Shown one piece after another: positions 13,940 to 23,535 of a stretch of 64,000 nt of DNA. Position 1 is the first letter of the stretch; the number at the start of each line of letters is the position of its first letter. Position numbers and translations under genes: made by a program. The DNA is from a virus. Lineage: Duplodnaviria > Heunggongvirae > Uroviricota > Caudoviricetes > Herelleviridae. The notes beneath the pieces are model-generated. The model was not told where the DNA came from, did not search any database, and saw only the letters and a list, made by a program, of their open reading frames with translations. Where the stretch lies: IMG/VR virus record IMGVR_UViG_2974542590_000001, positions 91,054 to 155,053 of that record; one strand, written 5' to 3'.

Positions 13940-14146
13940 AATTTGAATATTCTGATAATTTAACTATTTATAATCTTTTTTGAACTTTTTGTATTTAGTT
14001 GTTGTCAGGATGATAAAAATGTTGTATACTTTAGTTAGTGATTGACATACCTCAATTACTTCCTCTTTCTTTAAGTCTTTAACTATTGAGTAAGTTGCTG
14101 AATCAGTAGTTAAGAAAAAAGTTGTTAAGTTTGTAAAAAAGTTGCT

Positions 14147-14181
14147 AGTTCTATCAGCTTTTGTGTTATAATGTTGATAGA
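14147..14181 (+). promoter_or_regulatory. sigma-A-type promoter (TTGCTA-N17-TGTTATAAT) overlapped by a 10-bp-arm palindrome
   Basis: The promoter and palindrome read agTTCTATCAgcttttgtgttataatgtTGATAGAAct. Confidence 0.5.
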
Positions 14182-14254
14182 ACTAAAATTCACCTATGAT
14201 GAAACGGTATCATGACTGGCTGTTTTTTCTGACCTGTAATATTGTTTAACTTTT

Positions 14255-14677
14255 ATGCTAAACTCAAAACAGATTGGAAATATAACAGAAATAAAATGTA
14301 TGCTTGCCTTTTTAGAACAAGGATACAACGTTTTAACCCCCTATGGAGATTGTGAAAGATATGATTTTGTTGCTGATATAAAAGGAAATCTTGTTAGAAT
14401 TCAAGTAAAAACTTCAAAATTAGCAAGAAGAGGGAATGGTTTCAATTTCTCAATGAGAAGTAGCAATCGACAAAATGGAGCAATACTTCATCACCGATAT
14501 ACCAAAGAAGAAATTGATTTCTTCGCAACATATTATCAAGATAAATGTTATCTAGTTCCCGTTGAAGAGTGTGGAGCAGAAAAAACATTAAGACTTGACC
14601 CACCAGAAAATGGTCAACGTTATTCGATGGCTGAAGATTATGAATTGGAGGTTATGTTGAAACGATATTATGGCTGA
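14255..14677 (+). CDS. PD-(D/E)xK-family nuclease
   Basis: The motif ..CERYDFVADIKGNLVRIQVKTS.. has a D...(D/E)xK arrangement. Confidence 0.45.
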   Translation: MLNSKQIGNITEIKCMLAFLEQGYNVLTPYGDCERYDFVADIKGNLVRIQVKTSKLARRGNGFNFSMRSSNRQNGAILHHRYTKEEIDFFATYYQDKCYLVPVEECGAEKTLRLDPPENGQRYSMAEDYELEVMLKRYYG

Positions 14678-14815
14678 TGTAGAAAGCAACCAGTTCTTGT
14701 AGGTTCAAGTCCTGCTAGGTGAGTTGCTAGTCAAGATTACTTGGTTAGCAGATTCGTGTTTGTTAATAGCATGATAACCTCCCTCTTCCCCAAATTTAGG
14801 GAGGTTCCACCTTTT

Positions 14816-14887
14816 TGTTAGGTCGTCTAACAGGTAAGACACAATTCTTCGGAAATTGTGATACAGGTTCGAACCCTGTCCTGACAG
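14816..14887 (+). tRNA. tRNA-Arg (anticodon TCG)
   Basis: Hand fold: acceptor TGTTAGG/CCTGACA (one GU pair), D stem GTCT/AGAC, anticodon stem CAATT/AATTG with loop CTTCGGA, T arm ACAGG-TTCGAAC-CCTGT. Confidence 0.6.
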
Positions 14888-14901
14888 TTGTACAGTTACG
14901 G

Positions 14902-14995
14902 CTGTACAAACTATGTTTCTATGTTATAATGGTTGTAGGCTTTTAGAGACATCTCTCTTACCCCTGTTTAATTACAGGGGTTCCCTTTTTGCTTT
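14902..14995 (+). terminator. two hairpins downstream of tRNA-Arg (TTGTACAG-ttacgg-CTGTACAA, and CCCCTGT-ttaatta-ACAGGGG followed by TTCCCTTTTT)
   Basis: Read directly. The second hairpin has a U-rich tail. Confidence 0.45.
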
Positions 14996-15000
14996 TGGAA

Positions 15001-15098
15001 GGTTACTCGAATGGTTAAGAAGTGTTTAATTTGGTATCAGCCAAAGATATTGCAAACAATGACAACATCAGAGTGCAATTACAGAATATCTTCCATCA
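15001..15098 (+). ncRNA. degenerate type-II (Ser-like) tRNA-like element
   Basis: 5' GGAAGGTTACTCGAATGGTTAAGAAG is near-identical to the 5' end of the tRNA-Ser at 21089. The 3' ATCTTCCA can pair with the 5' end, but no canonical T loop is found. Confidence 0.25.
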
Positions 15099-15119
15099 AA
15101 AAAAAATAAAAAAACTTAC

Positions 15120-16230
15120 AAAAAGGTGTTTACAACTTTGTAATGTTATGCTATATTAGTATTACACCACAAGTTAGTGGTTAAAAATTGAAAACTTAAT
15201 AGATTTTGAACCTAGTGCAGAAAGTTTGAACAGCTTGCTAGGATAACGTGGCGTGAATCTGGATGTAACCGAAGGTGCGATAGTGCTTTTGGTTGCAGGT
15301 AGGTCTTATGGTAACATAGGAGTAACTATTAGTAAAAGCTAATATCAGTTAAGCGTTATGTGGAGTATACATGGATTGTAAGGTACAAGACTCTTGGGGG
15401 ATACAATAGACGTTCCTGTGGAAAAGAATCCAAGTTAGGTGGAAGTGTGAGAAGCTTGGCAGACCTTGGAAAACTCAAAAGACTCCCTTTGACGAGAACT
15501 GTAGAAATACAGGTTTAACAAGAGACCTTGGTACAAGTAGCTTAAGTCAGCGTTGGATGAAAATATTACAGAAGACATAAGGATATATGTTAATTAATAC
15601 TTTTAATAGCTGAATGTTTAGGTGAACGTTGTTAGCCACCGTGCTAGACCATACATTAAAGGCAGAGAGAAGCTATCGGGTAGCTCCCGATGGTTCAGCC
15701 TCTCTGAGTATGTGACCGAATGCAGTGAGTGTATATGAAGCAGGAAGAAAAGCCCTTAATCTATTAAGTTTTGAGTTTTTAAACATGTCACTGTGGCGGA
15801 AGTAGAAAATGCTATGGTAGTAAACCTGTTATGAGTAGTTTTTATCTATTAAGTTAACACTTTAATAGGCGTGAGTGGGGCAGTACCACTCCAGTGACTT
15901 AAAGAACCTACGGAAACAATCAATCTTATCGGATGCCGATTGGTTGGCTGAATTAAGCAGTGTGTCTGTGAATCAGTTAATAGGCATAAAATACTAGCAC
16001 AGACGTGTGCCACTCTCAGGTGTAGGTTAGGAGAGAAACATTAGCAACCGAGGGTTGGAAATGGGCGCTCAAAGTACACGAGCAAGGCGATGTCGGTAGT
16101 AATCGACGGAATCGGTGTAGGTTGCTTGATAGAGCTATAACTGCATCTCGTTTATGCGATGTGTTTTTTACAGATTAAATCATTCTAAGAGTGGTATTTT
16201 TATTTTACATAAAGGAGAGAATTTTCTCTT
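15120..16230 (+). ncRNA. ~1.1-kb ORF-free, GC-elevated, highly structured region
   Basis: No ORF of 60 aa or more on either strand, although flanking DNA is densely coding. TTTACA-N17-TATATT promoter at its 5' end. Multiple inverted repeats, e.g. CAGAGAGAAGCTATCGGGTAGCTCCCGATGG...CTCTCTG. Confidence 0.3.
15789..15907 (+). ncRNA. tRNA-like element bounded by GTCACTG...CAGTGAC (paralog of the 20515-20644 element)
   Basis: 5' GTCACTGTGGCGGAAGTAG... and 3' ...AGTGG-ggcagta-CCACT-CCAGTGAC. The same closing helix and TGGCGGAA motif occur at 20515. Confidence 0.3.
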
Positions 16231-16249
16231 TATTATTTTTATAGAAAGT

Positions 16250-16285
16250 GTTGACTTTCTGTACAACACATGATACTATAAGTTT
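16250..16285 (+). promoter_or_regulatory. phage promoter GTGTTGACTT-N17-TATACT
   Basis: gtgttgactttctgtacaacacatgatactataag. It lies upstream of the tRNA block. Confidence 0.5.
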
Positions 16286-16422
16286 ACAAGGTAAGCAGTA
16301 AGGGCTTGTAAGGTTCGAATCCTTAATTACCTATTCCACTTTTAATAGTGGCATGATTTAATTTCTATCTCTCATTATCTTACATTTTTCGGAGGGTTGC
16401 TAGTCCCTCCCCTCCGAATCTT

Positions 16423-16494
16423 GCGCTGTTGGTGTAGTGGCTATCATTTCCGGCTCCAACCCGGAAGACGGGGGTTCGAATCCTTCACGGCGTG
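16423..16494 (+). tRNA. tRNA-Trp (anticodon CCA)
   Basis: Anticodon stem TCCGG/CCGGA with loop CTCCAAC, D loop GTAGTGG, T arm GGGGG-TTCGAAT-CCTTC, and the acceptor pairs with GU pairs. Confidence 0.6.
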
Positions 16495-16636
16495 TATTTT
16501 TGGACAGCGGTGATAGTTATAGTGTATTATCCTTCACAGGAATGAATTACTGGTATGTAGCACTCTACTGGTAATTGTTGAAGAATGTGACGTGTTTACA
16601 AGATTAAAGTCATTCCGCCCCTCTCCATTGAAACAA

Positions 16637-16710
16637 GCTGATATTCCGTAATTGGTAACGGGACACACTTGTAATGTGTATACTTCTAGGTTCGAGTCCT
16701 AGTATCAGCA
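16637..16710 (+). tRNA. tRNA-Thr (anticodon TGT)
   Basis: Acceptor GCTGATA/TATCAGC is a perfect pairing. Anticodon stem ACACA/TGTGT with loop CTTGTAA. T arm CTAGG-TTCGAGT-CCTAG. Confidence 0.7.
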
Positions 16711-16812
16711 TTGTGAGCGGAAACTCACAAATTTATGTTTTGGTTGATTAATTGGTTATCTAGTTAGTTAGCGTGAACATTGCATACAGTTATCTATATA
16801 GAATTTTATCAA

Positions 16813-16884
16813 TAAGCTAGTTTTGTGTCTAGTGGTCTATGTGAGCTTCATAACCTCATGGCGGTTCGATTCCGTAAGGCTTAA
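16813..16884 (+). tRNA. tRNA with CAT anticodon (Met or Ile2); the D arm is weak
   Basis: Anticodon loop TTCATAA in a 4-bp stem. T arm GGCGG-TTCGATT-CCGTA. Acceptor TAAGCTA/AGGCTTA. An alternative perfect pairing GCTAGTT/AACTAGC suggests an extended precursor helix. Confidence 0.4.
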
Positions 16885-16902
16885 CTAGCTATTGGTAATC
16901 TT

Positions 16903-16976
16903 ATCTCCTTAGCTCAGTTGGTGGTAGCACCTGATTCTTAATCAGGGGGTCACAGGTTCGAATCCTGTAGGGGATA
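16903..16976 (+). tRNA. tRNA-Lys (anticodon CTT)
   Basis: Acceptor ATCTCCT/AGGGGAT, D loop AGCTCAGTTGGTGGTAGC, anticodon stem CCTGA/TCAGG with loop TTCTTAA, T arm ACAGG-TTCGAAT-CCTGT. Confidence 0.7.
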
Positions 16977-16978
16977 TT

Positions 16979-17052
16979 CTCGAAGAGTTGGTGTATGGCT
17001 TTGGTAACACGCCTCTTAGGAGGAGCAGGCAGTTCAAATCTGTCAGTCGAGA
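16979..17052 (+). ncRNA. tRNA-like element (T arm + acceptor) with no recognisable anticodon arm
   Basis: T arm GGCAG-TTCAAAT-CTGTC and 5/7-bp acceptor pairing CTCGAAG/AGTCGAG. The central region folds as CCTC-ttag-GAGG rather than an anticodon stem-loop. Confidence 0.3.
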
Positions 17053-17110
17053 CCCTTAGTTTTTCTATTAGTAACGGTTTTTCGAGAGGGTTATCTTGAA
17101 AAACACAACT

Positions 17111-17184
17111 GTCTCCATAGCTCAATCGGCTAGAGCACTCGACTTTTAATCGAGGGGTTCGGGGTTCAAATCCCTGTGGGGACA
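17111..17184 (+). tRNA. tRNA-Lys (anticodon TTT)
   Basis: Acceptor GTCTCCA/TGGGGAC, D stem GCTC/GAGC, anticodon stem CTCGA/TCGAG with loop CTTTTAA, T arm CGGGG-TTCAAAT-CCCTG. Confidence 0.8.
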
Positions 17185-17284
17185 TCGGTTAGTACATTAT
17201 GGTGCCACGGGTGTTTTGTAAGAGGGCACTTACAAGATAAATAAAGCAAGACAGCTTGCTTCCTGCGTAATTACTAACCTAGAA

Positions 17285-17357
17285 CGGCAGTTCGTCCAAT
17301 TGGCTAGGATGCTAGACTACGAATCTAGTGATAGAGGTTCGATTCCTCTGCTGTCGG
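17285..17357 (+). tRNA. tRNA-Arg (anticodon ACG)
   Basis: Acceptor CGGCAGT/GCTGTCG, anticodon stem CTAGA/TCTAG with loop CTACGAA, T arm AGAGG-TTCGATT-CCTCT. Confidence 0.7.
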
Positions 17358-17365
17358 TTAACATA

Positions 17366-17463
17366 CGGGAGTGGCGTGAGGCATACGCACCGTGGAAGAC
17401 ACGGGGAAGTTAATAATTCATGAATAAACCTTCCAATATCGCAGGTTCGAATCCTGCCTTCCG
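17366..17463 (+). ncRNA. 98-nt tRNA-like gene with long extra arm and 5-nt loop where the anticodon loop is expected
   Basis: Acceptor ACGGGAG/CTTCCGT, D stem GCGT/ACGC, extra arm GGAAG...CTTCC, T arm GCAGG-TTCGAAT-CCTGC. The stem CCGTG/CACGG closes the loop GAAGA. Confidence 0.3.
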
Positions 17464-17469
17464 TATAAA

Positions 17470-17500
17470 ATGCGGGTGTCAGAGGTTCAAATCCTCTCAC
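17470..17500 (+). ncRNA. isolated tRNA 3' fragment (T arm AGAGG-TTCAAAT-CCTCT + CACAGGT) with no 5' partner
   Basis: Only ~18 nt separate it from the preceding gene, and no complementary 5' acceptor strand was found. Confidence 0.3.
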
Positions 17501-17593
17501 AGGTATTTGCCTTAATTGGAAAACTATGACCTGTCGTTAGTTTACGTCTTACACTTTTGTGAAGAAACGTTTTTCGGGAGGTAGCTTTTATAT

Positions 17594-18031
17594 ATGAATG
17601 GAGGGGCAATTATGACATATAAAGTGTTACACGGAGAGGACAGTTTAGCGCCTCTGCTATGGACATTTTTTATTAGAGACGGACTATCTGTATCAGAAAC
17701 AGAAAGTTATAAATGTGTTGGTCAACGAGGACTAAATACAGATTATGTTCCACATGAACTAAGCCTTGATACACCTGTTATCTTTTATGAAATGAAGAGT
17801 ACTGTAGTATTTAAATGTGTTAACGGTGTGCAGGAAAAAACACCTTGTTTATTTTTTGATACATCCGAAAAAACTTGTTGTATTACGGAAGAACTATATG
17901 ATATTCTTGAAGAACTATATGGAACTGATATTTATTTCCTAGCTAAAACACTTGACCCAGAATTAGCATTGTCCTCCGTTTATTCAGAAGGTTGGTTATC
18001 TACTTTTATAGAGTTGAGACAGCAGGTTTAG
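17594..18031 (+). CDS. hypothetical protein
   Basis: 145-aa ORF with a GGAGG RBS region. Confidence 0.45.
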   Translation: MNGGAIMTYKVLHGEDSLAPLLWTFFIRDGLSVSETESYKCVGQRGLNTDYVPHELSLDTPVIFYEMKSTVVFKCVNGVQEKTPCLFFDTSEKTCCITEELYDILEELYGTDIYFLAKTLDPELALSSVYSEGWLSTFIELRQQV

Positions 18032-18106
18032 CACACAATAATAAGGAGTGGTTCCTGTGAAGAAAGTATTGTCTAAATTGTAAGTATCTATTAAGGAGGA
18101 CTTACA

Positions 18107-18358
18107 ATGAGTAGAAGTTACAGAAAACCCTATTACCGTTATGTTTGTATGAAGGATTCAACTGTTCGAGACATAAAAAGAATGGTTAACAGAAATTACA
18201 GGCATAAATTAAATCAAGGTCGTTTTGATGACGAAGTAACATTGACACATCATAAACGAGTAGAAGAAACTTGTTGGACGTATGATATGAAAAAATTTTA
18301 TGCTCACGAGGAAGATTACAAGGATAATAATTTTTATCATAAATTGAGAAGAAAGTAG
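18107..18358 (+). CDS. hypothetical basic protein
   Basis: AAGGAGGA RBS. 83 aa, Arg/Lys/Tyr-rich. Confidence 0.5.
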   Translation: MSRSYRKPYYRYVCMKDSTVRDIKRMVNRNYRHKLNQGRFDDEVTLTHHKRVEETCWTYDMKKFYAHEEDYKDNNFYHKLRRK

Positions 18359-18366
18359 GTAATATC

Positions 18367-18588
18367 TTGAAAGCAGATTATGTAGTTGCAGGAGACTGGG
18401 AAGGCATTTATCTTGATGATAAGCTTCAAGTAGAAGGACACAGTATACAAACACCAGATGCAATGAAACTTACTATTGAAAACGAAGTAACGGAGTTAAC
18501 TGTTTACGAGATTGACCAAGAGTATATGGAAGAGCTAGGTTCTCTACCAGAAAGTTTCTCTCAATTAGATTCGTCAAAACTTTTTTAA
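18367..18588 (+). CDS. hypothetical acidic protein
   Basis: 73-aa ORF, start uncertain. Confidence 0.4.
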   Translation: MKADYVVAGDWEGIYLDDKLQVEGHSIQTPDAMKLTIENEVTELTVYEIDQEYMEELGSLPESFSQLDSSKLF

Positions 18589-18599
18589 ATAAATTTATA

Positions 18600-18635
18600 T
18601 GTAAGTGTTGACTTTCCTTACAAGATGCTGTATAG
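18600..18635 (+). promoter_or_regulatory. phage promoter GTGTTGACTT-N17-TATAGT upstream of tnpB
   Basis: gtgttgactttccttacaagatgctgtatagtaattc. Confidence 0.5.
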
Positions 18636-18808
18636 TAATTCTTGTAAGGAACACATGATGGTGACTGTAGCCTAATGGTAAGGCAGTGTTCTGTGGAAAG
18701 AAATGTTCTGGTCTAAAAATTTTTGTCTTTTGACAACCGGCGGTGCACCCATCGGCGTCATAAAGAAATATATTCAGAATCAAGGGAACAATCATAAATA
18801 GAAAGCAG

Positions 18809-19960
18809 GTGAGCCTTATGGAACGACTAAAAGCATACAAATTCAGAATCTATCCAACAGAAGAACAAGAAATATTCTTTGCCAAATCTTTTGGTTGTGT
18901 CCGTAAGGTCTACAATCTAATGCTTGATGACCGAATGAAAACTTATGAAGAAACGAAGAATGACCCCTCTAAAAAAATGAGTTTTCCAACACCTGCGAAA
19001 TATAAAAATGATTTTCCGTTTTTGAAAGAAGTGGACAGTCTTGCTCTAGCCAATGCCCAACTTAATTTAGATAAAGCATATAAGAATTTCTTTCGAGATA
19101 AATCCGTTGGATTTCCTCGATTCAAAAGTAAGAAGAATCCAGTTCAAAGTTATACGACTAATAATCAAAATGGAACAATTGCTTTGATTGATAATAAATT
19201 TATCAAAATTCCTAAGTTGAAGTCACTAGTTAGAATCAAACTTCATAGACAGCCTAAAGGAATCATTAAGTCAGCTACAATATCACGTCATTCAAGTGGT
19301 AAATATTATATTTCCTTATTGTGTAAAGAAGAAATTATAGAATTACCTAAAACTAATTCTACAATTGGTATTGACTTAGGTATTATGGACTTTGCGATTC
19401 TTTCTGACGGACAAAAAATTGATAATAATAAATTCACGTCCAAAATGGAAAAGAAATTGAAACGTGAACAACGTAAGTTGTCTAGACGAGCTTTGGTAGC
19501 TAAAAAGAAAGGCGTAAACCTTTCTGAAGCTAAAAACTACCAAAAACAAAAACGTAAAGTCGCTCGTTTACACGAAAAAGTAGTGAATCAACGTACTGAT
19601 TTTCTGAATAAGTTGAGTACAGAAATTATCAAAAACCACGATATTATCTGTATTGAAGACTTAAACACAAAAGGTATGTTGCGTAATCATAAATTAGCAA
19701 AAAGTATTTCTGATGTGTCTTGGTCTAGTTTTGTAACTAAATTACAATACAAGGCTGACTGGTATGGACGAAAAATCATTAAAGTAGATAAATGGTTTCC
19801 ATCAAGTCAAATTTGTTCAGAATGTGGACATAAAGATGGCAAGAAATCTCTCGAAATTCGAGAATGGACTTGTCCTATTTGCCATACCCGACATGACCGA
19901 GACATCAACGCTAGTATAAACATTCTGAACGAAGGTCTACGAATACAATCACTAGTTTAG
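18809..19960 (+). CDS. tnpB: TnpB (IS200/IS605-family OrfB, RNA-guided RuvC nuclease)
   Basis: N-terminus MERLKAYKFRIYPTEEQE. C-terminal zinc finger CSECGHKDG...CPICHTRHDRDINASINIL (RuvC-III). GAGCC RBS. No tnpA nearby. Confidence 0.8.
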   Translation: MSLMERLKAYKFRIYPTEEQEIFFAKSFGCVRKVYNLMLDDRMKTYEETKNDPSKKMSFPTPAKYKNDFPFLKEVDSLALANAQLNLDKAYKNFFRDKSVGFPRFKSKKNPVQSYTTNNQNGTIALIDNKFIKIPKLKSLVRIKLHRQPKGIIKSATISRHSSGKYYISLLCKEEIIELPKTNSTIGIDLGIMDFAILSDGQKIDNNKFTSKMEKKLKREQRKLSRRALVAKKKGVNLSEAKNYQKQKRKVARLHEKVVNQRTDFLNKLSTEIIKNHDIICIEDLNTKGMLRNHKLAKSISDVSWSSFVTKLQYKADWYGRKIIKVDKWFPSSQICSECGHKDGKKSLEIREWTCPICHTRHDRDINASINILNEGLRIQSLV

Positions 19961-20160
19961 ATAAAAACAATAACCGTAGGAACTACGGGGATAGCTTGGT
20001 AAATAAGAGACACCGCTGTTAGTAAAAAAATAAACTATCAAGTATGCTCTATTCCCAAGAAGCTCCCACTTCAAGCGTAAGAAACCGCTAGGTTTAGCTA
20101 AGTGGTGAGTAGTTCACCCCATTCATAAGAAAAATGTTGATATATAAAGTGGTATTTTTT
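19930..20160 (+). ncRNA. expected omega-RNA / right-end region of the TnpB element (boundaries undefined)
   Basis: Placed by inference from TnpB-system architecture: the guide RNA scaffold overlaps the 3' end of tnpB and the right end. The sequence here is ORF-free and structured. Confidence 0.25.
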
Positions 20161-20449
20161 CAGAAGTGGGAAATCATAAATAATCTAGTTCACAAAGTGA
20201 TTATGTGGGTATGGCGGAATTGGTATATGATGTGAACTTCTCAGTTCAAGTCTGGGTGGAGGTATTACACATATAAAATAAAGTGCGAGGTCAATCATAT
20301 CATTACGATAGTGGATTGAATGATTAGGGTAAAAGACTAACAATCTCCTAATCTAAGAATAGGTAAGTTCCGTTAAATGTCACCCGTGTCCGTCTAAGTA
20401 CGTAAGGTAGAAGTTACACAAAGACAACTTTATTTTATTGGTTCCTTAG

Positions 20450-20515
20450 TGTAGTGGTTATCACATCGCCCTGTCACGGCGAAGATCACAGATTAAATTC
20501 CCGTCAGTTCCATAG
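20450..20515 (+). pseudogene. degenerate tRNA-Asp (GTC)
   Basis: 5' two-thirds is canonical (GGTTCCTTAGTGTAGTGGTTATCACATCGCCCTGTCACGGCGAAG). The T arm (CACAG-ATTAAAT-TCCCG) and 3' acceptor (CAGTTCC instead of AGGAACC) are not. Confidence 0.4.
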
Positions 20516-20644
20516 TCACTGTGGCGGAATAGGTAGACGTATAAGTAGCCAATACTAAAAACGTAGGGTATTTGGAGCTTATTTGAGGGATAGATAGGCG
20601 ACGGCTCGTTCCCAACTGCAAGGTGCAAATCCTTGCCAGTGACA
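20515..20644 (+). ncRNA. tRNA-like gene (Leu-like 5' end GTCACTGTGGCGGAATAGGTAGACG) with ~60-nt internal insertion
   Basis: Perfect acceptor GTCACTG/CAGTGAC and T arm CAAGG-TGCAAAT-CCTTG. The interior is far longer than any variable arm. Confidence 0.3.
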
Positions 20645-20807
20645 TAGACTGCCTTTGTCAAGCAGTCGAATCTTAACTAATTTTTTCACTAAATAAATAT
20701 CGAATTGTGGCTGATTTCTACGGATTCAGAGCGGAGCATCCCCGCAGGTTGGGCATACTACAGTCCCCCCATGATGCTTCATGGGTTATACATAGTTAGG
20801 GGGTAAC

Positions 20808-20993
20808 ATGATGTATTTAAAATTCATTGGTTTAAACGGAAGTTTAGGTTTAGTGAAGGACAAGACATACTTTGTTACCTCTGAGATAAATGAACATTAT
20901 ATTATTTTGAGAATACATGGTGTTCACGGTAGGACAGTAATGTGTCCGTACGAAGCATTAGAAAAAGTGTTAGAAAATTGGCAGGTCTGTTAG
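20808..20993 (+). CDS. hypothetical small protein
   Basis: 61-aa ORF after a GGGGG RBS. Confidence 0.4.
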   Translation: MMYLKFIGLNGSLGLVKDKTYFVTSEINEHYIILRIHGVHGRTVMCPYEALEKVLENWQVC

Positions 20994-21088
20994 TATGCAG
21001 ATAGTAGGGTGTGCATAAAGCCTAGGGAACAATATGCACAGAAGATTAGGTATTGTGTACTTGACACAAACCCGCCTGCTCCCGAGAC

Positions 21089-21175
21089 GGAAGGTTACTC
21101 AAACGGTAAAGAGGCTTGGTTGGAAACCAAGTAGATGTGTAACAGCATGTGTGGGTTCGAATCCCATGCCTTCCA
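21089..21175 (+). tRNA. tRNA-Ser (anticodon GGA), type II
   Basis: Acceptor GGAAGGT/GCCTTCC, anticodon stem CTTGG/CCAAG with loop TTGGAAA, long variable arm, T arm GTGGG-TTCGAAT-CCCAT. Confidence 0.6.
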
Positions 21176-21193
21176 TAGAACATGTAAGGAGAG

Positions 21194-21454
21194 ATGGACA
21201 TGAGCTTTATGACTGAACATTTAGCAACCATAGCTAGTAACATTGAAAAAGAAGCATTTGAAAAAGAAATTGAAGCTTCTAAACAAAAGCAAGCAGTAAT
21301 TAAACGAGCTAACCGTAAATTTAATTATGTTGAACCTTGTAAGATTGACTTTACACCATATAAAGGGAATGTACGTAAGTTTAAATCGGTTAGACATAGA
21401 AAATCACCTATTATTAGTAAACGACTAGCATTAAATCTAGTTTGGTTTTGGTAA
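21194..21454 (+). CDS. hypothetical protein
   Basis: AAGGAGAG RBS. 86 aa. Confidence 0.5.
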   Translation: MDMSFMTEHLATIASNIEKEAFEKEIEASKQKQAVIKRANRKFNYVEPCKIDFTPYKGNVRKFKSVRHRKSPIISKRLALNLVWFW

Positions 21455-21565
21455 GTTGTTTATCTAAAAACCTAAATAATAACTACTAAAGCTGTTTAAA
21501 GAGTTCGGTTTAAGTAGTTCCGGTTGGCTAGTCAACTAACAGTACTAGTCAATCAGTTTCTTTTT

Positions 21566-21625
21566 CGGGGAGTATCATAAGTAGACGTGTAAAAGCGTTT
21601 GGGGGTTCGAGTCCCGCCTCCTCGG
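21566..21625 (+). ncRNA. 60-nt armless tRNA-like minihelix
   Basis: Acceptor CGGGGAG/CTCCTCG and T arm GGGGG-TTCGAGT-CCCGC, with only ~25 nt between them. Confidence 0.25.
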
Positions 21626-21651
21626 TTCATTAAAGATAATGGAGGCTAATC

Positions 21652-22020
21652 ATGAGTTTTCGTAAAGGTAAACACAAGGAGCCTTCTAAGTGGCAAAGAT
21701 TTATTAAATCAATCATGGAAGTAGAAGGTGAAAACATGGAGGACACATTGTTTGAAAAAGCTTTTGATTCTTGGAAAGCAGGAGATAAGAGTGAAGAAGT
21801 ACAACGAGTTTTACTAGATTCTGGTTTAGAACAGTATAAAACTGGTGGTAAATATAATGTGGATGCTGTTAGAGAAATCTGTGAGAAAGCCCATAAAGGT
21901 GAGACTGTTTACAGGAAAGACAAGCATATCTTACAAGATTTCTATGAATGTTTAGAATGGGAAAACTTCCATACTGAAATTGAAGCAATTGAATTGTTTA
22001 CAGGAGTATCCTATATATAG
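21652..22020 (+). CDS. hypothetical protein
   Basis: GGAGG RBS. 122 aa. Confidence 0.5.
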   Translation: MSFRKGKHKEPSKWQRFIKSIMEVEGENMEDTLFEKAFDSWKAGDKSEEVQRVLLDSGLEQYKTGGKYNVDAVREICEKAHKGETVYRKDKHILQDFYECLEWENFHTEIEAIELFTGVSYI

Positions 22021-22049
22021 CCATATTTATAAATTAGGGGGTAATTGTT

Positions 22050-22214
22050 ATGAAATACACAGTTAAAAAAGGTGACACATTGTATTCTATTGCTAGAAAA
22101 TATTATGGCAAGCCTTGGTTATGGAGACTAATTTGGTTACATGGTCAGAATAGAAGTATTAAAGACCCTAATAAAATTAGAATTGGTCAAACAATTTATA
22201 TTCCGTTTAAGTAA
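22050..22214 (+). CDS. small LysM-domain protein (54 aa)
   Basis: Below the ORF-track length threshold. MKYTVKKGDTLYSIARKYYGKPWLWRLIWLHGQNRSIKDPNKIRIGQTIYIPFK. GGGGG RBS. Confidence 0.5.
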   Translation: MKYTVKKGDTLYSIARKYYGKPWLWRLIWLHGQNRSIKDPNKIRIGQTIYIPFK

Positions 22215-22222
22215 GTATATCT

Positions 22223-22281
22223 CCGTAGGCTAATCTATCCAATAGGACAGTGTTATACGGGTTCGATTCCCGTCTTGCGGG
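22223..22281 (+). ncRNA. 59-nt armless tRNA-like minihelix
   Basis: Acceptor CCGTAGG/CTTGCGG and T arm ACGGG-TTCGATT-CCCGT around a single CTAT/ATAG hairpin. Confidence 0.25.
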
Positions 22282-22394
22282 TTGCCCCTGCGGGTGGCTG
22301 AATGGTTAAAGCACACTGTCCCGAATGGATAAATTAAAAAAACTTACAAATAGTTGTTGACAGTATGTAAGTTTGTGTTATAATATATACATAC

Positions 22395-22512
22395 TTATAC
22401 GGGGAGTTATACCGTAAGTAGTAGCGGGGCTGACTGTAAATCAGTTGCGAAAGCTCGGGTGGTGCAACTCCATCACTCCCCATTAAAATAAAATGACCGG
22501 AGGTCACATAAC
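22395..22512 (+). ncRNA. structured 5' leader closed by GGGGAGT...ACTCCCC
   Basis: Lies downstream of the TTGACA-N17-TGTTATAAT promoter at ~22360 and upstream of the CDS at 22513. Confidence 0.3.
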
Positions 22513-22737
22513 ATGTCTAAATTTTATGGAATTATTTCAACAACTTCTACTCGTACAGAAGAGTACGAACAAAAGTTAAAAAACGGAAAGACAGTTAAGA
22601 AAACTCGTGAAATTACTGTGCCAAAAGAAGTTACAGTACAGTCTTCTCAACCAGACCGTTTAGGTGCTCGTAAAGAGCTAGAAGCTTTTGCACGTAAATG
22701 CAAAGGTACTGTTAAATATATTGGAGCTTTTAAATAA
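22513..22737 (+). CDS. hypothetical basic protein
   Basis: GGAGG RBS. 74 aa. Confidence 0.5.
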   Translation: MSKFYGIISTTSTRTEEYEQKLKNGKTVKKTREITVPKEVTVQSSQPDRLGARKELEAFARKCKGTVKYIGAFK

Positions 22738-23009
22738 GTTTCAATATATTTAAATTAATACTTGACAGTTTAAATAGCTTATGCTATTATAATGACAAGT
22801 TAAACGGTGGCCGCTAAACCGAATGTTTAACTGTCGGTTATTTGAAACTCATTCTTAATTGAATGGGTTTTTTATTTATAAAAGGTGTTGACTTACATAA
22901 TATTACATGTTATAGTTATGTTAGACAAAACATTACCATACAAAGGAGAAATGTCAGATACCATTTCTAGACAACCTAAAAGAAGAAACAACTGTTGGAC
23001 ATACAGAAA

Positions 23010-23168
23010 ATGAAGCGGTTTGACGAAGGTGATGTTGCGTTAGTATCTGGGTTCTCCACAAACATCTTAACACAAGTGTTGGGCGGAGAAATTACTTCCC
23101 CAGAAGAAATGATGTTGTCTGTGTTAAATAAACCAGAATACGACTTTGTAAAAGAAGCACTTAAATAA
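23010..23168 (+). CDS. small hypothetical protein (52 aa)
   Basis: Starts MKRFDEGDVALVSGF.... Preceded by the promoter at ~22880. Weak. Confidence 0.3.
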   Translation: MKRFDEGDVALVSGFSTNILTQVLGGEITSPEEMMLSVLNKPEYDFVKEALK

Positions 23169-23211
23169 TCTGTTTGCCCTAGGATTTCCTAGGGCTGTAG
23201 TTACATATAGA

Positions 23212-23442
23212 ATGGAGGGGAGAATCGTGGAAAGCAAGCCAAAGCCCTTGGTGCTGAAACGTGTTCGTGAAGAAAAGCATGAATCCTTGCGTTCTGTAGC
23301 TAAAAAACTAGGTGTACACTGGTCAACTGTATCCTATTGGGAGCACGGAATCAAAAAACCCAGAGCAAATAATCAAGCTAAATTAGCTCGGATTTTTGAT
23401 ATGCCTGCGGACAAGCTATTAGAACCTGATGACAAAAACTGA
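23212..23442 (+). CDS. XRE-family HTH transcriptional regulator
   Basis: HTH ..LRSVAKKLGVHWSTVSYWEHG... An alternative GTG start at 23227 has a better GGAGGGGAG RBS. Confidence 0.55.
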   Translation: MEGRIVESKPKPLVLKRVREEKHESLRSVAKKLGVHWSTVSYWEHGIKKPRANNQAKLARIFDMPADKLLEPDDKN

Positions 23443-23535
23443 TTGCCAAATATTTTTTGGCAATTTTTTGTAAGATAGGTGTTGACTTTTATAATATGTA
23501 ATGATATACTTTGAGTATAGTAAAGAAAGGGAGAG

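Follow-up and report, generated by a model that had tools for sequence, protein, structure and literature searches.

Transfer RNA (tRNA) islands of phages are usually read only as helpers in codon usage or as a means of escape from tRNA-cutting defences. Species 1 and 2, stable RNAs of the phage T4 tRNA cluster, and the tRNA-like RNAs of murine gammaherpesvirus 68 obtain tRNA-like ends through the tRNA-processing machinery and do not decode; in this respect they resemble the elements treated here, but a cassette-swapping architecture is not known for either. The elements in question lie at about 14700-22300 of a 64,000-nucleotide (nt) stretch of a Herelleviridae genome, hereafter the window, in a region that an initial annotation from sequence alone had described as a mixture of canonical tRNAs and aberrant tRNA-like genes. 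They include two copies of an RNA closed by the helix GTCACTG/CAGTGAC and a further tRNA-shaped RNA at 17365-17464.

A tRNA-shaped RNA that does not work in translation, likewise in a Firmicute setting, has been described on a mobile element of Bacillus cereus (tRNA-Other; PMC3399842); it is a single chromosomal gene, with no mention of a variable cassette. YrlA RNAs, which also occur in phages, likewise mimic tRNA in having T and D arms. Their RNA ends lie at the anticodon side and form the Ro-binding helix, the 'acceptor' being a closed stem-loop (Chen et al. 2014, PMC4201824), whereas the GTCACTG and 17365-type RNAs would have their ends at the acceptor, as in tRNA. Transfer-messenger RNA (tmRNA; RF00023) offers a similar topology, with the acceptor and T arm built from both ends and a large insert replacing the anticodon arm, but the GTCACTG RNAs (87-250 nt) by eye lack the G3:U70 pair and have a true D stem, and they give no match to the Rfam tmRNA model. 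ROOL RNA has been described near tRNA islands in phages (PMC12286853, PMC5737381) and shares that setting here, where a tRNA or tRNA-like RNA begins 13-26 nt after its end; ROOL itself is a 587-nt RNA and, unlike the GTCACTG elements, not tRNA-like.

Positions 14700-22500 of the window are a 100% match to Enterococcus phage EFP01 (KY549443 / NC_047796; Herelleviridae, Schiekvirus), the only record to reach more than 70% coverage of this interval. The 14700-22300 region is the tRNA and non-coding-RNA island of EFP01, across which its record annotates no RNA genes. As a yardstick for the odd elements of EFP01 we used the sister phages phiSHEF16, vB_Edu_21C1, CCS1, phiSHEF13 and EfsSzw-1 (~92-97% identical), whose syntenic islands hold 23-25 ARAGORN-callable tRNAs, a 348-nt tmRNA with the tag AKNEELLAVA*, ROOL RNA, YrlA-like RNAs and a Ro60-like protein.

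Both GTCACTG copies, as well as 17365-17464, belong to conserved families of tRNA-shaped RNAs that lack an anticodon and have no Rfam match. We read the region as an eroded tRNA island that also holds conserved, non-decoding tRNA-shaped RNAs, which would be processed as tRNAs are and whose cassette would be the working part; we give this reading a probability of roughly 0.6. All aberrant loci listed in the initial annotation are present at or near the positions it gave. Those that bear most directly on the reading are:

15787-15898, plus strand: GTCACTG tRNA-like RNA copy 1, 112 nt, subtype B, with a 60-nt cassette
20515-20643, plus strand: GTCACTG tRNA-like RNA copy 2, 129 nt, subtype C, with a 77-nt cassette
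17365-17464, plus strand: class II tRNA-shaped RNA whose 'anticodon' loop has 5 nt and whose variable arm is enlarged
16979-17052, plus strand: tRNA-like RNA with a 4-nt loop (CCTC-TTAG-GAGG) replacing the anticodon loop, from its fold

None of the four is called by ARAGORN or matches the Rfam tRNA model at E<=10.

The GTCACTG/CAGTGAC pairing had been noticed at the outset, and with the boundaries corrected as above both copies indeed close with CAGTGAC. The 15-mer GTCACTGTGGCGGAA occurs exactly twice in the window, against 0.05 expected (up to 2 mismatches), and in viral contigs at no fewer than 118 loci. Among the matches listed, the acceptor complement closes 104 of 135 instances of the 15-mer, 87-248 nt downstream; 40 distinct scaffolds place 98.4% of cells in standard pairs, where slid partners give 29-44%, and both sides have changed in four of the six T-stem pairs. 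The scaffold consists of a 7-base-pair (bp) acceptor of fixed sequence (its 5' strand was set by the search pattern for family members), a Leu-type D arm and a 6-bp T arm, and covariation supports the 7-bp acceptor, D arm and T arm of the tRNA-like RNAs. A DNA-level role, as an inverted repeat or packaging site, was considered and judged unlikely, because the acceptor, D and T stems contain G-U pairs that fit a plus-strand RNA only.

The scaffolds fall into subtypes A (D loop GAAAGGGTAGA, T loop TTCGATT), B (D loop GAAGTAGAAGA, T loop GGCAGTG or similar) and C (D loop GAATAGGTAGA, T loop TGCAAAT), so that the D-loop type co-varies with the T-loop type. The carriers established so far are Enterococcus-type phages; one locus has no known relative. 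A scan of species-representative genomes with the 15-mer returned, among the matches listed, nearly only chance hits, the two copies in Enterococcus malodoratus being real. When the T arm of a single subtype, A, was combined with other acceptors, no further members with a Leu-type D arm were found; this search returned unrelated tRNA fragments and minihelices of 45-95 nt. No Rfam family matches the GTCACTG elements at any threshold tried, and in the literature, searched by words and by sequence, they are not described.

The smallest members, 87-88 nt long, adopt a class II cloverleaf whose 'anticodon' stem is capped by a 4-nt loop, and eight of their 28 pairs carry a compensatory change. A 7-nt anticodon loop is absent from the tRNA-like RNAs, which have loops of 3, 4, 5 or 6 nt or a long cassette instead. 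Among 100 GTCACTG elements, ARAGORN calls a single one a tRNA, namely a canonical tRNA-Leu(taa) at locus L087. It has the same 7-bp acceptor GTCACTG/CAGTGAC, U8-G9 linker and 3-bp D stem as the tRNA-like RNAs, and both have a T arm; the 11-nt GG-containing D loop differs at two positions. The identity of acceptor and D arm points to descent of the family from a phage tRNA-Leu. Class II tRNA-Leu also matches the smallest members in overall length. In contrast to class II tRNA-Leu, the family has a 4-nt loop or a cassette of 34-196 nt where the 7-nt anticodon loop would be, a T stem of 6 bp, a discriminator that is mostly U and no encoded CCA, which the L087 tRNA does encode. At position 74, directly after the discriminator, U is found almost without exception, and Bacillus RNase Z prefers U at this place. 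Charging by leucyl-tRNA synthetase, also considered, lost support: the E. coli enzyme requires an A discriminator, and the mostly U discriminator of the family makes leucine charging unlikely.

The element at 17365-17464 had been described as a 98-nt locus with a 5-nt loop; the loop stands, with the ends moved outward by one position each. It combines a 7-bp acceptor with a Leu-type D arm and a T arm, and seven variants are available, from sister phages, from two viral contigs and from EH802P2, a 72-kb phage of E. hirae. All helices are kept among these variants, with seven of 25 pairs changed on both sides and a stub loop of 3, 5 or 6 nt; 89.9% of cells are paired, against 34-47% with slid partners. 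In EH802P2 the element lies 3' of a consensus promoter, with an RNA ligase 2 gene ~2.6 kb downstream. The 21C1 ortholog is the only one to exceed the Rfam tRNA threshold (35.2 bits). A search with the 3' end of 17365-17464 retrieved the normal tRNA-Pro(tgg) of gut phages, indicating that its acceptor and T arm are not specific to the element, and searches with its variable-arm loop and with the 16979-17052 pattern found only Schiekvirus fragments. The 20-nt variable-arm loop (TTAATAATTCATGAATAAAC; 17409-17428) is identical in EFP01 and the unrelated EH802P2 (L329, 4548-4656), and in phiSHEF13 its central CATG is changed to CGCG with the palindrome kept; this palindrome may serve for loop-loop dimerisation.

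The region between the D and T arms of the GTCACTG family is of a very different nature from the scaffold around it. Among the matches listed, 64 distinct full-length sequences fall into 28 unrelated cassette classes of 34-196 nt, and some classes occur in more than one scaffold subtype. At the copy 2 locus, phiSHEF16 and phiSHEF13 are 97% and 91% identical in the flanks and 92% and 88% identical in the two parts of the scaffold, and only 26% in the cassette. EFP01 carries a third cassette at this place, which it has in common with the genomic copies of Enterococcus malodoratus. Judged from these alignments, the locus is a replacement hotspot. Such cassette replacement between phages that are 91-97% identical around it is a pattern typical of host-conflict loci, and this turnover makes the GTCACTG and 17365-type RNAs worth experimental follow-up.

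Genomic context adds a further level of organization. No tRNA lies within 1 kb of 78 of 100 GTCACTG elements. On prophage-like contigs the elements sit between an ArpU-like regulator and HNH or small-terminase genes, co-oriented with them, and the prophage arrays run in the order subtype A, a ~109-nt spacer, subtype B, a module closed by AGCAACC/GGTTGCT and a terminator. This module, regularly 3' of subtype-B elements and 5' of the terminator, is present at 24 prophage-like loci (e.g. L011, L013, L018) with at least seven core classes, and gives no Rfam match. The window holds a comparable unit, running from a promoter (15129-15157) through ROOL, copy 1 and the AGCAACC module to a terminator-like hairpin:

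16043-16126, plus strand: AGCAACCGAGG...GTGTAGGTTGCT module with the conserved closing helix AGCAACC/GGTTGCT and a variable core
16144-16169, plus strand: weak terminator-like hairpin with a T run, read from sequence

The core of the window module is common to prophage loci L018 and L055, and in phiSHEF13 and EfsSzw-1 the module is missing together with copy 1. The hairpin is not in the terminator scan list; its stem is better paired in the sister phages. The 144 nt between copy 1 and the module (15899-16042) contain no plus-strand open reading frame (ORF) of more than 40 amino acids and several hairpins by eye, and belong to a block 98.5% identical to phiSHEF16.

In some prophage arrays (L011, L024, L045, L079, L109) the last module before the terminator is a hairpin resembling abiF RNA (26.2 bits, cut-off 37; loop CCUCUYAACRAUG), which is absent elsewhere among 330 loci examined and from the window. 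This hairpin hints at antitoxin mimicry; it may be an antitoxin-RNA mimic and offers a weak lead toward counter-defence. In GTCACTG contigs among L074, L077, L079, L105, L109, L112, L114, L023 and L110, ARAGORN makes odd calls, some with stop or selenocysteine anticodons (tta, tca), and one tRNA in these prophage-like contigs has an 8-nt anticodon loop by eye (TTTTTTAA).

Under our reading of conserved, tRNA-processed RNAs, the tRNA-like RNAs would be transcribed together with their neighbors. RNase P would generate the 5' end, RNase Z would cleave 3' of the discriminator, and addition of CCA would follow. This processing would yield stable tRNA-shaped RNAs and at the same time form the 3' ends of the upstream ROOL RNA and tmRNA. 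The tRNA body would thus serve as a handle for processing and stability, and the variable cassette would do the work, most plausibly by binding host factors in phage-host conflict. We infer the function of the GTCACTG and 17365-type RNAs as tRNA-processed stable RNAs in this way. The neighborhood of the large RNAs is suggestive: a tRNA or tRNA-like RNA always follows directly after ROOL, with 13 nt between the end of ROOL and copy 1 and, where copy 1 is absent, a tRNA-Met starting 26 nt after ROOL; copy 2 directly follows tmRNA where this is present, the tmRNA of the relatives ending 2 nt before it. This arrangement suggests how the 3' ends of these large RNAs arise.

The GTCACTG family is a candidate new RNA family that is widespread, tRNA-shaped and non-decoding. 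We put forward more tentatively that the GTCACTG RNAs, the 17365-type RNA and the AGCAACC module might together form a new class of phage non-coding RNA, in which a handle derived from tRNA-Leu carries an exchangeable effector cassette with fast turnover. Such a cassette could bind or mimic partners of host defence proteins. If the cassettes are effectors, these RNAs would parallel in nature the tRNA scaffolds built by engineering, and would add a new source of counter-defence RNAs from phages.

Several points weigh against the reading of an eroded island with working tRNA-shaped RNAs. The RNA ends are inferred. Cassette hypervariability could also reflect lack of constraint, and the 'invariance' of the acceptor is partly circular since the search pattern fixed its 5' strand. 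Copy 1 is absent from phiSHEF13 and EfsSzw-1 and copy 2 from CCS1, so both are dispensable; where it occurs in phiSHEF16, 21C1 and CCS1, copy 1 is 99-100% identical. The deletions in EFP01 rest on a single assembly. The loci 16979-17052, 16289-16340 and 16817-16893 vary too little for function to be told apart from a fixed pseudogene.

An alternative that accounts for part of the same evidence is that the RNAs serve as decoys or sponges against tRNA-attacking or tRNA-modifying host enzymes, with the acceptor/D/T body at work and the cassette as unconstrained filler; the initial annotation had suggested decoys for anticodon nucleases. The strongly conserved acceptor and D/T elbow around a free center would fit this explanation, as would the RNA-repair and surveillance genes of the carriers (RNA ligase 2 in EH802P2, the Ro60-like protein in the sister phages). 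However, the invariance of the acceptor is in part imposed by the search pattern, and no defence gene is tied to the tRNA-like RNAs. Lacking an anticodon loop, these RNAs cannot mimic the cut site of an anticodon nuclease, which makes this form of the idea awkward. The cassettes, moreover, are structured and common to different scaffolds, suggesting that they matter. We therefore consider the decoy explanation unlikely.

The next alternative holds that all non-canonical elements are decaying, functionless tRNA pseudogenes whose conservation merely follows from the close relatedness of the phages. For most of the aberrant loci originally listed this is how the alignments read: they are wrecks specific to EFP01 with intact tRNAs at the same places in the sister phages. 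We compared the genomes with a BLAST block map, per-element mapping and base-level alignments to the sister phages. The losses of tRNA are attributed in this comparison to at least six deletions ending inside tRNA genes and to three mobile-element events, namely an endonuclease gene in tRNA-Asn, a TnpB insertion sequence (IS) in tRNA-His and an endonuclease-insertion scar in tRNA-Ser. The apparent 'shells', 'minihelices' and chimeras result from these deletions and mobile-element events:

15001-15098, plus strand: wreck of tRNA-Ser(gct), with the first 26 nt and last ~11 nt kept in the alignment
17469-17505, plus strand: 3' 37 nt of tRNA-Ile(gat); in the alignment tRNA-Val and the 5' half of tRNA-Ile are deleted
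20196-20262, plus strand: chimera of the 5' part of tRNA-Leu(taa) and an unrelated T-arm-like tail, by alignment
20440-20514, plus strand: Asp-like tRNA body, its final ~15 nt aligning with the 3' end of the sisters' tmRNA
21566-21625, plus strand: tRNA-Ser(tga) with a 27-nt internal deletion; the aligned junction lies between two TCATA repeats
22216-22231, plus strand: first 16 nt of tRNA-Arg(tct), which in the alignment a ~420-nt deletion has joined to a YrlA-like RNA

Of the three explanations that the initial annotation had offered, pseudogenes thus apply to 15001-15098, 20450-20515, 21566-21625 and the 5' end of 22223-22281, and alignment to the sister phages extends them to 17469-17505 and 20196-20262; they do not apply to the GTCACTG pair or to 17365-17464, for which a family of tRNA-mimic RNAs, also proposed there, is supported by wide distribution and compensatory changes. 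The Ser-like shell at 15001-15098 has indeed kept the ends of tRNA-Ser(gct) around a replaced interior. This interior is the start of an insertion with a complete ORF in phiSHEF16, which marks the locus as an insertion scar; the phiSHEF16 ORF has a sub-threshold Pfam HNH match (17.2 bits, cut-off 21.4), and EfsSzw-1 is annotated with a 579-nt HNH endonuclease gene at this position. The Asp-like locus with a broken 3' end proved to be a chimera with the 3' end of tmRNA, but its 20440-20512 part passes the Rfam tRNA threshold (37.6 bits, cut-off 29); these ~15 nt are all that aligns to the tmRNA of the relatives, and no tmRNA is called in EFP01. Of the two loci taken for ~60-nt minihelices, 21566-21625 is genuine as a locus and originates from tRNA-Ser(tga) by loss of 27 nt, whereas 22223-22281 is no free minihelix and combines the 16-nt tRNA-Arg stub with the 5' half of a 105-nt YrlA-like RNA.

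Some of the remaining loci are uninformative on this point and can be counted on the side of pseudogenes, as can the dispensability of the GTCACTG copies in some sister phages. The 97-100% identity of 16979-17052, 16289-16340 and 16817-16893 in all relatives leaves little to compare: 16979-17052 shows two substitutions in relatives, outside the cloverleaf stems as read by eye, and 16289-16340 is 98-100% conserved.

16289-16340, plus strand: ~52-nt minihelix of acceptor and T arm, directly 3' of a promoter-like site at 16251-16279

Minihelices of 45 nt, akin to this one, were also seen in the unrelated viral contigs L250, L252, L258, L268 and L278; they combine a 7-bp acceptor and an AATGGTT-type loop with a shared 6-bp T arm (GCAAGG-TTCGATT-CCTTGC).

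Decay is difficult to reconcile with the main families. More than 100 contigs have retained the GTCACTG scaffold around unrelated cassettes and in different gene contexts, in prophages as well as 150-kb lytic phages, at 98% pairing and with compensatory T-stem changes. Likewise, compensatory changes preserve all five helices of 17365-17464 in a phage of 72 kb from another lineage, and short capped 'anticodon' stems recur with different sequences. As an explanation of all elements, pseudogenes are improbable, and working RNAs in an eroded island remain the better account of these families.

The erosion itself could be questioned, as the lesions specific to EFP01 might be assembly artefacts, produced by collapse or mis-joining across repeated tRNA sequence. 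Junctions within repetitive tRNA sequence and the restriction of the pattern to EFP01 among ~100 records would be expected in that case. However, a complete endonuclease gene and a complete TnpB element are unique inserted DNA that collapse cannot create, the junctions lie at varied tRNA positions (one with 5-nt microhomology) and not at the shared T-loop repeat, and the cassette of copy 2 is a different, real sequence found also in E. malodoratus. The inserted genes and varied junction positions argue for real events, and an artefact is highly improbable, the simple deletions being the lesions to which it could still apply.

That the elements are real tRNA genes with introns removed to give working tRNAs is hardly credible: the only default-threshold call of ARAGORN's intron mode at a listed locus forces a 13-nt 'intron' into 17364-17466, its 119-nt 'intron' in 20443-20643 appears only at the lowered -ps80 threshold, and the smallest GTCACTG members at 87-88 nt already have full class II length with their 4-nt loop and so leave no room for an intron, while at E<=10 the island gives no group I or II signal save one 12.2-bit group II fragment (cut-off 49). 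Introns, the third explanation offered at the outset, are thus unsupported at every listed locus; the proposed intron-mode check did detect a genuine interruption outside the list, in tRNA-Asn, at exactly the anticodon loop.

This interruption and the TnpB element were both absent from the initial annotation. Their parts are:

14190-14224, plus strand: 5' part of tRNA-Asn(gtt), up to anticodon position 36, aligned to tRNA-Asn of phiSHEF16
14225-14687, plus strand: 463-nt insertion in the tRNA-Asn anticodon loop, with a PD-(D/E)XK endonuclease ORF at 14255-14677
14688-14724, plus strand: 3' part of tRNA-Asn, joined to 14190-14224 by ARAGORN intron mode
18660-18699, plus strand: 5' half of tRNA-His(gtg), severed immediately 3' of the anticodon loop
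18700-20117, plus strand: IS200/IS605-type element with a TnpB ORF at 18809-19960 and a structured 3' end at 19961-20117

The insertion in tRNA-Asn lies exactly between anticodon positions 36 and 37 and is restricted to two EFP01 records among 35 matching Enterococcus phage records. Its ORF matches Pfam PF11645 (112.8 bits) and occupies 423 of the 463 nt (91%); the last base is C. Group I introns need G as their last base, and Rfam Intron_gpI gives no match at E<=10 in 14000-23500 or in 14170-14740 alone. Over its last ~30 nt the insertion resembles a diverged copy of the 5' part of this tRNA. In tRNA-His, the element (~18700-20117) has replaced the 3' half and ~90 nt more. The TnpB protein matches NCBIfam NF038281 (510.9 bits, cut-off 425) as well as the OrfB_IS605 and Cas12f-like TNB domains of Pfam. 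The sequence after its ORF (19961-20117) has a folding energy of -39 kcal/mol and overlaps a weak Rfam match to the Enterococcus small RNA Ref70; it may be the guide RNA of the TnpB element.

The consequence of these losses is visible in the tRNA complement of EFP01. ARAGORN calls seven tRNAs in the 64-kb window, all within the island, and Rfam returns the same seven, a weak eighth at 20440-20512 and a full-length ROOL RNA. By comparison, about two-thirds of the sister-phage tRNAs are missing from EFP01. Phage tRNA islands can thus be heavily eroded, and 'strange tRNAs' first need comparison with sister genomes. The intact genes, each found by both ARAGORN and Rfam, are:

14815-14888, plus strand: tRNA-Arg(tcg)
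16422-16495, plus strand: tRNA-Trp
16637-16710, plus strand: tRNA-Thr
16902-16977, plus strand: tRNA-Lys-ctt
17110-17186, plus strand: tRNA-Lys-ttt
17285-17357, plus strand: tRNA-Arg-acg
21089-21175, plus strand: tRNA-Ser(gga)

These are seven of the eight clean tRNAs of the initial annotation; the eighth, a CAT tRNA, did not hold. Its sole candidate is called by no tool, with no ARAGORN call and no Rfam tRNA match at E<=10; by eye its anticodon stem is mismatched, and 7 nt too many separate the T stem from the acceptor:

16817-16893, plus strand: degenerate CAT 'tRNA'

The window holds 18 matches to the T-loop motif GTTCRANYC, where shuffles give 7.0+/-2.4, and 16 of the 18 lie on the plus strand at 14.7-22.3 kb. 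The tRNA-Arg(tcg) is the positional ortholog of tRNA-Gln(ttg) in the sisters, with nine differences, among them the central base of the anticodon and paired substitutions in the anticodon stem; in the alignment this looks like a change of tRNA identity and not decay.

The large RNAs of the island and a YrlA-like RNA complete the list of non-coding features:

15129-15157, plus strand: promoter-like site upstream of ROOL (TTTACA-17-TATATT, with TG extension)
15187-15773, plus strand: ROOL RNA, 587 nt (Rfam RF03087, 264.8 bits, cut-off 99.1, model positions 1-574)
22232-22336, plus strand: YrlA-like (Y RNA-like) RNA, 105 nt (Rfam RF02553)

ROOL, which the initial annotation had missed, is 94.7-99.7% identical in seven related loci that hold it, and was absent from 14 GTCACTG-bearing viral loci searched. 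The match of 22232-22336 to RF02553 (27.6 bits; E=5.6e-4 in a search of 371 nt) does not reach the cut-off of 69. Its layout, as given by cmscan and the minimum-energy fold, comprises a T arm, a closed stem-loop, a D arm and a long closing helix that contains both ends; at the place of the Ro-binding motif GNCGAAN0-1G it has UCCAAUAG, which is not consensus.

In vB_Edu_21C1, three YrlA-like matches (30.1, 34.4 and 47.8 bits) lie upstream of a 511-amino-acid protein with DUF2828 and DUF7788 domains, and on an unrelated 138-kb contig a YrlA-like match (35.6 bits) is directly upstream of a DUF2828 homolog. The 12 best Protein Data Bank (PDB) matches of the DUF2828+DUF7788 model (predicted local distance difference test, pLDDT, 91.3) are all Ro60/TROVE proteins, among them Thermus phage Ro60 and Deinococcus Rsr, with a best E of 4e-7 and a template-modelling (TM) score up to 0.61. 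A sequence search of the DUF2828 protein against PDB gave no match, so the relationship is one of fold comparison only. By fold, DUF2828 proteins are predicted to be Ro60/TROVE relatives, and the fold together with the YrlA-like matches argues that the sister phages carry a Ro60-like protein with YrlA-like RNAs. Homologs of DUF2828 number 4624 among 8000 candidates scored, many on phage-sized contigs; no Ro-like genes were among the conserved prophage neighbor clusters within 4 kb, few of which were scanned against Pfam. EFP01 appears to have lost two other YrlA-like copies and most of the Ro60-like gene while keeping one YrlA-like RNA: the island scan gives no further YrlA match, and of the gene only the first ~60 nt are located, with no long ORF left (22805-23016; sister L005, 11386-12921).

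Just downstream of the YrlA-like RNA lies a last tRNA of atypical form:

22401-22482, plus strand: unusual tRNA-Tyr(gta), found by ARAGORN at lowered threshold (Rfam 27.7 bits, cut-off 29)

Its elbow combines a D loop without GG (TAAGTAGTAG) and the T loop TGCAACT, resembling the subtype B and C scaffolds. A perfect consensus promoter, TTGACA-16-TATAAT, precedes it at 22357-22384, and the gene is 100% conserved in the five sister-phage loci that cover the position.

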